Below, piece by piece: positions 12,228 to 43,267 of a stretch of 64,000 nucleotides of DNA (positions are counted from its first letter, which is position 1; each line of letters begins with the position of its first letter). Where the stretch lies: the sequence record PP430345; one strand, written 5' to 3'. The notes below the pieces were generated by a model. It saw nothing but the letters and a program-made list of their open reading frames with translations. It was not told where the DNA came from and did not search any database. A program made the position numbers and the translations under genes. Source of the stretch: Escherichia phage vB_EcoM-LTH01.

Positions 12228-13862
12228 TTAGCCCTCCACCGTTACCCATACGCCAGACATACGCTTCTGGATTGGTTTGTAATAACCTTGGTTTAATCCA
12301 AGTCCCGCTGAAACAACACCAGTGATTACGCAACCTGCCGGAGCACGTACAGGACTGGTATAGTTGTCCCCATTCATTGTCGTTTGTTGCTCAATACCTA
12401 AACGAACATCTTCGATAGTTTGAACAACTACGGCTGGAATAACTGTAACCTGCCTTGTTGCTTGGATTCCCGTAATAGATCCACGAACAGTAATAACAGC
12501 AGTACCTGGAGCAACACCCGATACATATCCACTTTGTGTAACGACAGCAACGTTAGCATTACTGGTGGAATACACTAGCGGCTCGTTGGAGTTGGCAGGT
12601 GTTCTGTTAACAGGGATCACTTCAGAATCGTTAACTTCCACACTAGGGATGCTGCCGATACTGATCGCTGTCAATGGTGTGTATGAAACTATTTTAACCT
12701 GTGCCGATATACCTGTGGAGATAGAGGCAATGATGTTAGTTTCACCTGGTCCAGTCAATCTTACATTACCAGCGCTATCCACGGTTGCAACATTACCATT
12801 CTGAGAGGTCCAAGTAACAGGATATTGGCTCGCCAAGTTTGCAGGGAGAACTTGAGCAGATATCCCTTGGGTAAAACCTACACGATTTGTAATGCTATCT
12901 GGTGTAGTAACAAGTGCAGTTGGTGACAGACTTCCAGTACCTTGTGCCTGATCAGTCTTGATAATGTACATCACTGCGACGTTCTTAGGTCTGTTTTCCG
13001 GTGCAGTCGGAACTACACGGCTTGCATCGAATCGAACATCACCTGCTGGGTTTTTACGATCGTGGTCAGGACCCGAGTTTGAGTTATATTGCGTATAAAG
13101 CGCACCTTGTTCACGATAACCGTGATCAGTACGGATACTTTCGTAACCCATTACACCCGTAATGTTTCGAATCGCATCACCTTGAATAGAACCTAAAGCA
13201 CGACCAGAGTCAGGGTCGTAAGCTCCAGATCCGTGCGCCCATCCACGAAGGAACAATCCACGATAATCAGGGACTACGTTTCGTCCTAAAACTTGGTACA
13301 GTCGTGGGTTCTGAGATGTACTGAATACTTGCCCGTTACACTCCAAGAATCCCGCCGGAGGAACTTGACCAGCCCAAGTAAGAATTGCACCAATCGGAAC
13401 CAGACGAGGCTCAAGCTCATCAATACGTGCGTTTAATCGGGAAACTGCATTATCTAAGTCTTGAGATAAACGAGTAACACGCTGATCAACCGCAGTGATC
13501 TCACGACGAAGATCTGCAACAGTCTGCTCTACATAAGTTCTTAAAGTTGCAACAGATTGTCTTACGTTCGCAACATCTTCACGAATAACTTCCAGTTGAT
13601 TGTTTACTCGTGTTTCGAGTTCCTGAATCAGTCGCTTGTATTCTTCTTCAACCTCTGGAAACTTCTCTTCTACGATCCAATTAAGCCAAGCACCAGACTG
13701 GTGAAGAATATAGTTGAATTCTTCTGCCGCTGGTTTTTGCCCTTTGTCATAGCCCTTTGCTAAAAGGTCATCAATCGGTTTTGATTTGTTAGGTCTTCCA
13801 GTACCAGGAAGGTTAACATCTTGTGCCGCAAAGACAACAATCGGTGTTGTTGGTCTAGCCAT
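12228..13862 (-). CDS. tail fibre protein with tail-collar and Big_2 domains (544 aa)
   Basis: N-terminal coiled coil. Collar motif PIGAILTWAG..PAGFLECNGQ..PDYRGLFLRGW. Two Ig-like (Big_2-type) repeats (..VTWTSQNGNVATVDSAGNVRLTGPGETNIIAS..). Confidence 0.75.
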   Translation of the reverse strand: MARPTTPIVVFAAQDVNLPGTGRPNKSKPIDDLLAKGYDKGQKPAAEEFNYILHQSGAWLNWIVEEKFPEVEEEYKRLIQELETRVNNQLEVIREDVANVRQSVATLRTYVEQTVADLRREITAVDQRVTRLSQDLDNAVSRLNARIDELEPRLVPIGAILTWAGQVPPAGFLECNGQVFSTSQNPRLYQVLGRNVVPDYRGLFLRGWAHGSGAYDPDSGRALGSIQGDAIRNITGVMGYESIRTDHGYREQGALYTQYNSNSGPDHDRKNPAGDVRFDASRVVPTAPENRPKNVAVMYIIKTDQAQGTGSLSPTALVTTPDSITNRVGFTQGISAQVLPANLASQYPVTWTSQNGNVATVDSAGNVRLTGPGETNIIASISTGISAQVKIVSYTPLTAISIGSIPSVEVNDSEVIPVNRTPANSNEPLVYSTSNANVAVVTQSGYVSGVAPGTAVITVRGSITGIQATRQVTVIPAVVVQTIEDVRLGIEQQTTMNGDNYTSPVRAPAGCVITGVVSAGLGLNQGYYKPIQKRMSGVWVTVEG

Positions 13863-41479: not shown

Positions 41480-41560
41480 TGGCGTGAAGGTGAAGAGTCG
41501 AACTCCTTACGACTGGTTTTGGAGGCCAGCTTGCCACCGTGACAATTATGTTACCCGCAC
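41480..41560 (-). tRNA. tRNA-Trp-like (anticodon CCA), atypical 81-nt form
   Basis: Canonical loop CTCCAAA, T loop TTCGACT and CCA. However, the acceptor GTGCGGG/CCTTCAC has a C.U mismatch, and 8 nt rather than 2 precede a TTGTCA-CGG-TGGCAA D hairpin. Confidence 0.55.
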
Positions 41561-41567
41561 ATTAATT

Positions 41568-41642
41568 TGGTTTCCGTACTGGATTCGAACCAGTATCACA
41601 ACGAGACGTTGCGGGAATCTTATCCTATAAGCCTAACGGAAA
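41568..41642 (-). tRNA. tRNA-Arg(UCU)-like with a closed anticodon loop
   Basis: Perfect acceptor TTTCCGT/ACGGAAA, T arm ACTGG-TTCGAAT-CCAGT and CCA. The anticodon arm is CGCAACG-TCT-CGTTGTG (opened, the loop is CGUCUCG with no U33). D arm is CTTAT-AGG-ATAAG. Confidence 0.5.
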
Positions 41643-41645
41643 ATT

Positions 41646-41732
41646 TGGTGCATTGTGATGGAGTCGAACCACCCGAGTTCTATGAACAGCAGATTTACAG
41701 TCTGCCCCGCTACCCCTACGGTCTAACAATGC
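41646..41732 (-). tRNA. tRNA-Tyr (anticodon GUA), type II, CCA encoded
   Basis: Acceptor GCATTGT/ACAATGC, anticodon arm GCAGA-CTGTAAA-TCTGC, variable arm GTTC-ATA-GAAC, T arm GGTGG-TTCGACT-CCATC. The D region is irregular, with 4 nt before the CCG/CGG stem. Confidence 0.7.
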
Positions 41733-42042: not shown

Positions 42043-42415
42043 AATCTTCACCTTCTGCCATTTTATACTCACGAATCTGAGTAGTTAATGGAATAGCATC
42101 TTTAAATGCATCAGAAGGGCCTTGATGAGTTTCTGAATTTGCAGAAGTAGTTCCTCCTGCCAGATCCTCTTCATTATCTTCCATTGTGTACAGATTGTTT
42201 GCCTTTTCAGCTTGCTCAAGAATATACTTCGCAGTAGTTTCTTTAACTTTCTCTGTACCGGAAGTCAGTAGACCTTCCAGAGTTTTAATTGCTTGAGGAG
42301 TAAGTCTTGCAAACTCGGAACGAGCATGAAGAATTGCTCTCTCAGTATTGATTGCAATGCTTTCCTCTGTAGTAGGCCGACCGCGTTTTCGAGTAACGAT
42401 TTCAGCTTTAGCCAT
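42041..42415 (-). CDS. putative DNA-binding protein embedded in the tRNA operon (124 aa)
   Basis: ATG 42415 lies 6 nt after GAGG. N-terminus MAKAEIVTRKRGRPTTEE carries an AT-hook-like GRP followed by helical HTH-like segments. It resembles small-terminase N-termini, but this is unproven. Confidence 0.5.
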   Translation of the reverse strand: MAKAEIVTRKRGRPTTEESIAINTERAILHARSEFARLTPQAIKTLEGLLTSGTEKVKETTAKYILEQAEKANNLYTMEDNEEDLAGGTTSANSETHQGPSDAFKDAIPLTTQIREYKMAEGED

Positions 42416-42442: not shown

Positions 42443-42471
42443 ATATTAGCAGTATAATAGGATTATGTCAA
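42443..42471 (-). promoter_or_regulatory. sigma70-type promoter internal to the tRNA operon
   Basis: Minus strand reads TTGACA (42471-42466), 17-nt spacer, TAATAT (42448-42443). Confidence 0.6.
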
Positions 42472-42607: not shown

Positions 42608-42682
42608 TGGTGGCCCTGGGTGGAATCGAACCACCGTCTGGCGATTATGAGTCGCTTGCTTGAACCGTCCAGCTACAGGGCC
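42608..42682 (-). tRNA. tRNA-Met (anticodon CAU; could instead be an Ile2-type), CCA encoded
   Basis: Acceptor GGCCCTG/CAGGGCC, anticodon arm AGCGA-CTCATAA-TCGCC (A.C at positions 27-43), T arm GGTGG-TTCGATT-CCACC. Confidence 0.85.
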
Positions 42683-42698
42683 TGTATTTAAAAGAACT

Positions 42699-42784
42699 TA
42701 GCGCGGGAGGAAGGACTCGAACCTTCATACTCCAATTACTCGATTAACGACGGTTTAGAAGACCGTTGAGATACACCCGCGCTA
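42699..42784 (-). tRNA. tRNA-like element: UCU anticodon loop, long variable arm, no D arm, no encoded CCA
   Basis: 9-bp terminal stem TAGCGCGGG/CCCGCGCTA. T arm GAAGG-TTCGAGT-CCTTC. Anticodon arm ACGGT-CTTCTAA-ACCGT begins only 9 nt after the acceptor. A 23-nt variable region carries the hairpin TTAAT-CGAGTA-ATTGG. Confidence 0.45.
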
Positions 42785-42786
42785 AA

Positions 42787-43093
42787 TTCTCTTGTGGGTG
42801 GTGACAGGTTTTGGATATTTAACGACAGGATAACCTTAAACCTCGTCATCATGACAAGGGGTACACCGTAAAAGATTGTCGTGGTATTAAAACTATAATG
42901 ATCCGTGGATCACTAATCAGACGATCTTCGACGGCTCCCCGATATACACAGGGATGGACTGGGCATCCCATTTAGTCGCAGTCAACCAAAAGCGTAAATC
43001 GCGGCGGTGGTATATTGGTTCCAACATATATTTATCCACCCAGCCTTCAAGATGACTAATCTCTCAGGCAACAAAATAATCTTACATATTTAA
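42787..43093 (-). ncRNA. candidate structured RNA / long leader upstream of the tRNA-like element (~300 nt, ORF-free)
   Basis: Hairpins at 42841-42859 (7 bp), 42899-42912, 42951-42969 (GGGATG/CATCCC) and 43006-43040 (GGTGG..CCACC composite). Confidence 0.3.
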
Positions 43094-43267
43094 TCAGCTA
43101 TTGTCAACAGGTTTTTTACCATTAATGCAGAGATTACACATCACTGATCTCTTTGGTCCTAAAAACCTGTAACCGCAAACAAAACACTGACAAGTGTAGC
43201 CTTTTTGTTTTTCATGGTTGCGAGGATCATCGAAACTTAGAGATTCAAAGGTCTGGTCTTTCATCAT
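43094..43267 (-). CDS. small zinc-ribbon protein (57 aa)
   Basis: CQCFVCG..CNLC forms two CxxC pairs. ATG 43267 overlaps the stop of a 23-codon upstream mini-ORF (ATGA). Confidence 0.5.
   Translation of the reverse strand: MMKDQTFESLSFDDPRNHEKQKGYTCQCFVCGYRFLGPKRSVMCNLCINGKKPVDNS

Follow-up and report, generated by a model that had tools for sequence, protein, structure and literature searches.

The minus strand of a 64,000-nucleotide stretch of Escherichia phage vB_EcoM-LTH01 (sequence record PP430345; the whole stretch is called the window here) carries, within positions 42690–42793, a transfer RNA (tRNA)-like element that is probably a working phage tRNA-Arg(UCU) with a structurally rewired core and one member of a phage-wide family. 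In the fold that we propose, the acceptor, anticodon and T arms would be ordinary, and a CUC that lies 5' of the anticodon stem would pair with a GAG that lies 3' of it. The resulting short helix, called helix X below, would stack on the anticodon stem in the manner of a normal D stem, with one non-Watson-Crick layer in between, and the strand that leaves it (UAAUUGGA...), which resembles the D loop of a tRNA-Arg (A14, G18, G19, A20), would enter the T stem directly. Put in the terms of a canonical tRNA, D-stem strand 10–13 and D loop 14–20 would have been relocated from before to behind the anticodon arm. The element is neither truly D-armless nor a type-II tRNA, and none of the three readings left open by an initial annotation of this DNA (a D-arm deletion pseudogene, a tRNA-like decoy or processing element, or a type-II body that carries an Arg anticodon) fits it well.

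The model score, the acceptor stem of seven positions with its discriminator and stacked T arm, and the anticodon arm of the window copy are those of a tRNA, and the feature it lacks is a D hairpin between positions 9 and 26. The covariance model of the Rfam tRNA family (RF00005) matched 42702–42780 on the minus strand with 35.8 bits (gathering score, 29; window-wide E = 8e-4), and ARAGORN returned no call at the element and no transfer-messenger RNA (tmRNA) in the window; its calls there are five ordinary tRNAs (Gln, Gly, Pro, Tyr and Met). The RF00005 alignment gives the acceptor stem seven positions, stacks the T arm directly on it and reads G42702 as the discriminator, followed by CUA; 15 D-arm positions are reduced to 4 nucleotides (nt), 20 nt are inserted before the T arm, and one acceptor pair is non-standard. 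In this register the acceptor stem joins 42780–42774 with 42709–42703 by six base pairs (bp) and a U6.U mismatch (42775/42708). The T arm (GAAGG-TTCGAGT-CCTTC) and the anticodon arm (ACGGT-CTTCTAA-ACCGT, with UCU as anticodon) are as first described (coordinates in Table 1), the latter having a 5-bp stem and a 7-nt loop with U33 and a purine at 37. A covariance model built for the family found a single copy in the window, at 101.7 bits, where the best members reach 102.9, and every loop and core position of this copy has the consensus base of the family.

The family was assembled from several searches. Sensitive blastn with a 111-nt region around the element as query found homologues in 265 GenBank phage records, which belong to the Ounavirinae (Felix O1-like), Vequintavirinae (including Klebsiella phages), Stephanstirmvirinae (phi92-like), Asteriusvirus and Straboviridae, and further to the jumbo phages 121Q and CMSTMSU, Sugarland-like phages, a Pectobacterium T4-like phage, Bas93 and Streptomyces phages. 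The window is nearest to Escherichia phage UPEC06 (Vequintavirinae), in which the element is identical and unannotated; it is identical in W70 as well. Nearly all records leave the homologue without annotation, that of 121Q calls it 'tRNA-Leu(taa)', two others call it 'tRNA-OTHER', and Rfam has no separate family for it. The acceptor stem of the 121Q and Felix O1 copies is perfect over its 7 bp and is followed by a discriminator and an encoded CCA, and their anticodon stems differ from that of the window copy by compensatory changes. A normal full-length tRNA at this locus in homologous phages, which the initial annotation had named as the mark of a deletion derivative, was found in none of the relatives compared, 121Q and Felix O1 included. 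Pattern scans added copies on 78 viral contigs of IMG/VR and on at least 120 metagenome contigs, while the single genomes of 185,579 bacterial and archaeal species gave only four real matches, all on contigs of metagenome-assembled genomes, and blastn against 5,426 complete E. coli genomes gave none. The family is thus common in phages and essentially absent from cells. A loose scan of viral contigs with a 5'-half pattern returned mostly chance matches in AT-rich coding DNA; its five real matches were four new members (at loci handled as L108, L123, L136 and L152) and a truncated copy (L131).

Two collections were used for comparison, one of 63 distinct sequences aligned without gaps (set A1) and a larger one of 135 distinct gapless members to which the metagenome set had been added. 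The search patterns fixed columns 43–64 of the alignment and left the anticodon unconstrained. In the smaller set, the acceptor stem, helix X, the anticodon stem and the T stem together have 94.5% of their cells paired and a covariation score of 0.78; shuffled alignments scored 0.19, with none of 500 reaching the observed value, and alignments in which the partners had been slid scored 0.10–0.15. All seven acceptor pairs and all five anticodon-stem pairs covary, and three of the five T-stem pairs show double changes. An architecture found in 135 distinct sequences of very different phages, with compensatory changes in every stem, is not what a D-arm deletion pseudogene would leave.

Helix X, which joins columns 11–13 (CUC, 42770–42768) with columns 40–42 (GAG, 42741–42739), also stands up when it is taken alone. 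All 189 of its 189 cells in the 63 sequences are paired, against 75.6% in shuffles (0 of 500 reaching the observed value) and 13–41% in slid controls, and an unbiased mutual-information scan ranks 12–41 sixth and 13–40 twelfth among all column pairs, amid pairs of the canonical stems. All three pairs are intact throughout the larger set (135/135 each), as CG 134 and UA 1 at 11–42, as UA 81, GC 25, AU 25 and CG 4 at 12–41, and as CG 112, GC 11, UA 10 and UG 2 at 13–40, so that the helix exists in 26 sequence versions. A fourth pair, 14–39, forms in 28/135. When it is compared with the first pair of the anticodon stem, 15–31, exactly one of the two is standard in 121/135 members and both are in only 2, which indicates that helix X and the anticodon stem are kept apart by one non-Watson-Crick layer. 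Several positions that lie outside the search patterns are also constant or nearly so: U8 and A9 in all 135 members, U10 in 129, and C32, A36 and A37 of the linker in all 135. The initial annotation had placed nine nucleotides between acceptor and anticodon stems and concluded that there is no D arm; a D hairpin is indeed absent, but the connector is UAUCUCA, 7 nt once the G7–C pair is counted, and its CUC takes part in a D-stem-like helix with GAG.

The same rewired architecture occurs in relatives that differ in anticodon or in linker. Copies with ACG, UCG or CCU anticodons lie at L087 2689–2766, at L064 12999–13080 and 13348–13429 and at metagenome loci; the metagenome loci with other Arg anticodons or a short linker are L221, L225, L231, L295, L238, L197, L270, L271 and L285. 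Some phages carry two rewired copies, and in the L064 copy at 13348–13429 the otherwise invariant C11–G42 pair is flipped to G–C. The short-linker form has 3 nt, instead of 7–8 nt, between the anticodon stem and helix X, from which it follows that the length of the linker is not essential to the fold.

Topology, conservation and arithmetic weakly suggest that helix X and the strand behind it are the equivalent of a D domain. Helix X lies directly 5' of the anticodon stem with one mismatch layer between them, which is the layout of D-stem positions 22–25 and position 26 in a canonical tRNA. The U-A-A-n-U-G-G-A that follows helix X reads as position 13, A14, R15, 16, 17, G18, G19 and A20; at the D-loop stretch that it matches, the canonical tRNA-Arg of locus L055 has AGUUGGAUA, and the motif is kept in divergent relatives that were found without constraining it. 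The length of the element also adds up, as 76 canonical positions and a 6-nt linker make 82. When columns 39–50 are moved before column 9 and the 6-nt linker is dropped, the result is exactly 76 nt long, with a D stem of four layers, an 8-nt D loop and a 5-nt variable loop. The GUAU left over could stand in for positions 45–48 ahead of the T stem, and U8-A9-U10 could correspond to canonical U8, A21 and position 22. The RNA would fold into an L shape, and the chances that its rewired core equals a D arm in three dimensions appear even or slightly better. An internal duplication of segment 10–44 followed by loss of the outer parts is a plausible origin. As to the most complete form of the proposal, we see an even chance that the element is a phage-exclusive elongator tRNA, L-shaped, with a circularly permuted D/anticodon domain, that is charged by the host arginyl-tRNA synthetase (ArgRS) and works on bacterial ribosomes.

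The identity of the element as an arginine tRNA is suggested by its anticodon, its discriminator and the D-loop-like strand. The anticodon, which the searches had not constrained, is UCU in 124 of the 135 members, CCU in 5, ACG in 4, UCG in 1 and ACU in 1; C35 followed by U or G is present in 135/135, and 134/135 have a standard Arg anticodon. The member with ACU (L249, metagenome contig OGWC01005896.1; loop CUACUAA) would pair with the Ser codon AGU and keeps C35 and U36. The discriminator is G in 79 members, A in 51, T in 4 and C in 1, and so a purine in 130/135. The identity set of E. coli ArgRS comprises A20, C35, U/G36 and A/G73, with A20 as the main determinant (PMC9976931). In the window copy, C35 and U36 of the UCU anticodon and G73 (G42702) match this set, and an A at 42731 follows GG in the UGGA of a strand that is not a closed D loop. 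At the phage loci analyzed, GG followed by A is present in 12/12 canonical tRNA-Arg and in 48/456 other tRNAs, and GGA is present throughout the rewired family. ArgRS may therefore charge the element through the A20-like base, C35, U36 and G73, and the charged RNA would decode AGA and AGG.

The place of the element in phage tRNA arrays is consistent with such a role. A separate canonical tRNA-Arg(UCU) accompanies the element at just two of its 97 loci, L055 and L081, and arrays of 20–28 tRNAs contain a canonical Arg(ACG) and no canonical Arg(UCU). L064 combines canonical ACG and CCG with rewired CCU and UCU, which make a full Arg set. The canonical tRNA-Arg(UCU) of L055 (1522–1598 on the minus strand) follows a clamped rewired copy without CCA at a distance of 12 nt, and its anticodon stem has a C.A and an A.C mismatch at its two ends. 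Demand for the codon, the usage of which the initial annotation had proposed to compare, is also high: the open reading frames (ORFs) of the window contain AGA at 7.0 per 1000 codons (14.7% of Arg) and AGG at 3.4 per 1000 (7.2% of Arg), compared with 1.2 and 0.7 per 1000 in a sample of 42 E. coli K-12 genes (14,832 codons), so that AGA is enriched about six-fold and the two codons, rare in E. coli, are five- to six-fold commoner in phage genes. The paper on the Felix O1 genome lists 22 tRNAs, this one not among them, and states that AGA is over-represented and that a tRNA for AGA 'might have been expected' (PMC3185647). Anticodons, slot-filling and AGA demand together lead us to read the element as the probable AGA decoder of the phage.

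The window copy belongs to a subclass of the family with an unusual 3' end. The initial annotation had reported a 9-bp terminal stem in which TAGCGCGGG (42784–42776) pairs with CCCGCGCTA (42707–42699); these pairs are present on the minus strand, but they are only part of a longer helix, namely the outer five acceptor pairs and the first four of 13 leader/trailer pairs (42793–42781 with 42702–42690) that continue the acceptor stem outward as a clamp. It had also seen correctly that the element encodes no CCA and that the other seven tRNA-like units of the cluster all end in it; the window copy reads G-CUA, compared with an encoded CCA in 95/135 relatives. The 135 members fall into 95 with an encoded CCA and no leader/trailer helix, 18 with a leader/trailer helix of 12–15 bp and no CCA, and 22 with neither. 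The sequence of the clamp, which includes the discriminator, varies between phages, and the clamps of the 18 members contain 32 G.U pairs versus 2 A.C mismatches, an excess that points to selection for pairing in RNA of the tRNA strand. Other CCA-less members, L006 and the L222 group, share the U6.U mismatch, while the pairs next to it covary. In L006, the CCA-less copy is the sole AGA decoder in an array of 23 tRNAs.

A combined helix of about 20 bp has the size accepted by RNase III, and the CCA-less tRNAs of phage T4 have their end completed by the host CCA-adding enzyme. The window copy may likewise be excised from a poly-tRNA transcript. RNase III or another endonuclease would first cut within the roughly 20-bp helix and so open the clamp; processing by RNase P and trimming of the 3' end would come next, and the host CCA-adding enzyme would finish the 3' end.

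Several observations weigh against the reading of the element as a working, rewired tRNA-Arg. Helix X has just 3 bp, and RNAalifold, given the 63-sequence alignment, returned only the stems of the three ordinary arms (acceptor, anticodon and T), without helix X and without the hairpin drawn in the variable region, so the case for helix X is one of covariation counts and not of energy. The invariance of columns 43–64, which were set by the search patterns, is in part ascertainment. ARAGORN called 63/63 un-permuted sequences as a 76-nt tRNA-Arg and 0/63 originals, but it also called 63/63 constructs in which the segment had been reversed and 48/63 in which it had been shuffled, so this test has no discriminating power. 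A hidden Markov model of 374 canonical phage tRNAs gave 29.9 bits to the un-permuted form, 27.5 to the reversed, 22.8 to the shuffled and 14.6 to the original, differences that favour the permuted reading weakly without discriminating it from the controls. One member has the anticodon ACU and 5/135 have a pyrimidine discriminator, the canonical tRNA-Arg(UCU) of L055 and L081 implies that the element is not always needed for decoding, and the window copy itself combines a mismatched U.U pair with the lack of CCA and a 3' end held in the clamp.

Some of these points would also suit other explanations. The element could be a tRNA-like RNA that is not used in decoding, either a decoy or sponge for a host or rival factor that binds the anticodon loop of tRNA-Arg(UCU), such as an anticodon nuclease or a modification enzyme, with the odd body blocking normal use, or a punctuation mark for the folding or processing of the poly-tRNA. 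A textbook CUUCUAA loop, the one known from E. coli argU and T4 tRNA-Arg, on a non-canonical body would be in keeping with a decoy, as are the confinement of the family to phages, the subclass of the window copy with its missing CCA and its 3' end locked in a 13-bp helix, and the two loci that have a canonical tRNA-Arg(UCU) as well. Such an RNA would, however, have no need of a purine discriminator, of a CCA encoded in most members, of a covarying 7-bp acceptor stem or of the GGA typical of tRNA-Arg, nor would it be expected to diversify into CCU, ACG and UCG, which with UCU make up a complete Arg decoding set, or to be found at 95/97 loci without any other AGA decoder, arrays of 20–28 tRNAs included. 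Colicin D, which cleaves tRNA-Arg isoacceptors, is the nearest case to a defence of this kind, and no known defence specific to tRNA-Arg(UCU) was found. With Arg identity elements, a C35 that never varies and a vacant Arg(UCU) slot that is filled, we regard a role outside decoding, which the initial annotation had listed, as unlikely.

It is quite improbable, too, that the family is functional and the window copy is a decaying pseudogene whose 3' end cannot be released, a view that could draw on its end in CUA rather than CCA, on U6.U and on the presence of CCA in all seven other units of the cluster. Its score of 101.7 bits is close to that of the best members, its loops and core all match the consensus, and it is identical in UPEC06 and W70; the absence of CCA together with a 12–15 bp clamp is shared by 18 different sequences of unrelated phages and goes along with compensatory changes and an excess of G.U pairs, and U6.U is kept in three sub-lineages in which the neighbouring pairs covary. 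The score, the recurring clamp and mismatch and the array of L006 all argue against decay. A class-II body that is charged by seryl- or leucyl-tRNA synthetase (SerRS, LeuRS), so that AGA would be read as Ser or Leu, is very improbable. The window copy does allow the 5-bp hairpin on which this idea was founded (UUAAU/AUUGG, columns 34–38 with 45–49; TTAAT/ATTGG in the DNA). Every member could form its three outer pairs (U.G, U.G and A-U), and at 35–48 the U.G becomes C-G in 3/63. Yet the hairpin is not conserved among the 63 homologues: none of its pairs shows a double change, and the inner pairs 37–46 and 38–45 cannot form in 21 and 40 of the 63, respectively. Short-linker relatives that are otherwise intact (L087 2689–2766 and several metagenome sequences) lack its 5' strand, the GAG of its loop is paired elsewhere, in helix X, the anticodons are confined to Arg, and discriminator and GGA suit ArgRS. 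A mobile element with terminal inverted repeats was also considered and rejected, because G.U pairs occur in the 'repeats', whose sequence is not the same from copy to copy.

A working tRNA-Arg(UCU) with a rewired core is thus the reading that we prefer for the features collected in Table 1. The tRNA-Met(CAU) downstream of the element is likely to be its co-transcribed neighbour, and the promoter at 43079–43107 could drive a transcript of the leader, the element and this tRNA.

Table 1. Features of the element and its surroundings in the window, in minus-strand order (5' to 3'); 42793–42690 is the element with its leader and trailer.
Feature	Position	Strand	Remarks
Sigma-70-like promoter, TTGACA, 17 nt, TAAGAT	43079..43107	-	About 290 nt upstream of the element; candidate from a consensus scan
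Leader 5' strand AAGAGAAUUUAGC	42781..42793	-	Pairs with 42690–42702, 11 Watson-Crick pairs and 2 G.U
Acceptor 5' strand GCGGGUG	42774..42780	-	Pairs with 42703–42709 (Rfam alignment)
Connector U8-A9-U10 (UAU)	42771..42773	-	Between acceptor 5' strand and helix X
Helix X 5' strand CUC	42768..42770	-	Pairs with GAG at 42739–42741; proposed equivalent of D-stem 23–25
Hinge base A14	42767	-	Faces C at 42742; proposed 26.44-like layer
Anticodon arm ACGGU-CUUCUAA-ACCGU	42750..42766	-	Anticodon UCU at 42757–42759
Linker/bulge CGUUAAUC	42742..42749	-	Joins anticodon stem to helix X 3' strand
Helix X 3' strand GAG	42739..42741	-	Proposed equivalent of D-stem 10–12
D-loop-like strand UAAUUGGAGUAU	42727..42738	-	Leads straight into T stem; D-loop positions are putative
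T arm GAAGG-UUCGAGU-CCUUC	42710..42726	-	Read from sequence and Rfam alignment
Acceptor 3' strand CUCCCGC	42703..42709	-	Rfam alignment and covariation
Discriminator G (42702) and 3' trailer CUAAGUUCUUUU	42690..42702	-	Paired to leader; CCA not encoded
Canonical tRNA-Met(CAU)	42608..42682	-	ARAGORN and Rfam; starts 7 nt past the end of the extension helix at 42690

Other features around the element are of interest in their own right. Within the apparently non-coding leader just upstream of it, about 138 nt (42806–42943, minus strand) have about 82% identity to the rIII-30.9 intergenic region of T-even phages such as RB51 and RB68, where it is unannotated, so that this sequence is common to unrelated phage families. 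Between tRNA-Met and a small ORF that starts at 42415, there is a second strong sigma-70-like promoter (42443–42471 on the minus strand; TTGACA, 17 nt, TAATAT and a TG upstream of it). The tRNA cluster contains further atypical units on the minus strand. The one at 41568–41642, which the initial annotation had counted as a second unit bearing UCU, has an acceptor stem, a T arm and CCA, and its loop (CGUCUCG) lacks U33 and a purine at 37; neither ARAGORN nor Rfam calls it, and its homologue in Schickermooser is unannotated and has a loop 3 nt shorter with no UCU. As the UCU is not conserved there, we rejected this unit as a second tRNA-Arg; it is not a conserved Arg decoder. The unit at 41489–41555 has CCA and an imperfect acceptor stem, its sequence is unusually long where a D arm would be expected, and its match to the tRNA-Sec model is below threshold (19 bits); its homologue in Salmonella phage PVP-SE1 is annotated as tRNA-Trp (loop CUCCAAA, anticodon CCA). 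The unit at 41646–41732 is called tRNA-Tyr(GUA) by ARAGORN, falls below the Rfam tRNA gathering score and matches tRNA-Sec with 32 bits against a cut-off of 47.

Comparison with known RNAs helps to define what is unusual about the element. It shares with canonical tRNA-Arg(UCU) (argU, T4, L055 and L081) a 7-bp acceptor stem, a 5-bp anticodon stem, the CUUCUAA loop, a UUCGA T loop, a purine discriminator and the GG-A motif, as well as the location in phage tRNA arrays and the expected job of decoding AGA, a codon that is rare in the host. Unlike these tRNAs, it builds its D-stem-like helix from strands that flank the anticodon arm, leads its D-loop-like strand into the T stem, is 82 nt long rather than 76–77 nt, and is missed or mis-typed by standard tRNA finders. 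With the D-armless mitochondrial tRNA-Ser(GCU/UCU) of animals it has in common the absence of a D hairpin and a short connector after the acceptor stem, and the UCU-type anticodon is found in some invertebrates (PMC7609411). Those tRNAs are organellar, reduced and flexible, with no D-loop equivalent and no helix that replaces the D stem, whereas the element keeps a covarying helix and a GG-bearing D-loop-like strand and is longer than a normal tRNA; we therefore rejected a mitochondrial-type D-armless tRNA, since the CUC of the connector is paired in 135/135 members and the GG-bearing strand is conserved.

Other rearranged or extended tRNAs differ in other ways. Permuted tRNA genes were reportedly described by Soma and colleagues in 2007 from the red alga Cyanidioschyzon merolae, and Pan, Gutell and Uhlenbeck are said to have made circularly permuted tRNAs in vitro in 1991, with the finding that a tRNA folds with its backbone opened in the D loop. 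The order of segments departs from the canonical one in the Cyanidioschyzon genes as in the element, but the algal permutation affects the gene as a whole, at the acceptor ends, and processing through a circular intermediate yields a normal tRNA again, while in the element the ends are colinear, only the inner D/anticodon domain is rearranged, and the mature RNA itself would be non-canonical. A gene-level permutation was rejected because the 5' and 3' acceptor strands are in normal order and flank the whole element. Class-II tRNAs, tRNA-Sec, allo-tRNAs and nematode V-arm tRNAs also have extra nucleotides between anticodon and T arms; in the element, the variable hairpin is without covariation support and the stems have 7 and 5 bp. 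Members that encode CCA have this 7-bp acceptor and 5-bp T stem rather than the 8/5, 9/4, 8/4 or 9/3 expected of tRNA-Sec or allo-tRNA, which were rejected on these grounds. The window subclass resembles YrlA, the tRNA domain of tmRNA and viral tRNA-like structures in having a tRNA-like acceptor/T domain on a long helix, but none of these has a conserved decoding anticodon loop; a YrlA or tmRNA mimic was rejected, as no such Rfam match occurs at the locus at E values up to 5 and ARAGORN finds no tmRNA.

A review of non-canonical tRNAs from 2020 mentions no phage case (PMC7609411), and a paper from 2024 states that all known bacterial tRNAs are cloverleaves (PMC11551756). No description of such a phage tRNA was found in the open-access full-text literature, although an earlier one is possible, and the element seems to be a natural exception to the cloverleaf in bacterial translation that had gone undescribed. 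If the proposed fold and function are true, it would be the first natural non-cloverleaf tRNA in bacterial translation and would measure how far the tRNA fold can be rewired and still serve ArgRS, EF-Tu, RNase P, modification enzymes and the ribosome. In addition, it would provide a natural scaffold for the design of orthogonal tRNAs.

For the biology of these phages, the gene is unannotated or mis-typed in hundreds of genomes, including those of the well-studied phages Felix O1, phi92, 121Q and rV5-like phages, and its recognition as an AGA decoder would explain the gap in Felix O1, which uses AGA heavily without a recognised tRNA for it. That unrelated phages have kept the element may be due to some benefit of its altered body, such as escape from a host or rival factor that recognises the D arm of canonical tRNA-Arg. 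Why only phages keep this fold would then be a question that bears on the tRNA-targeting defences of their hosts.

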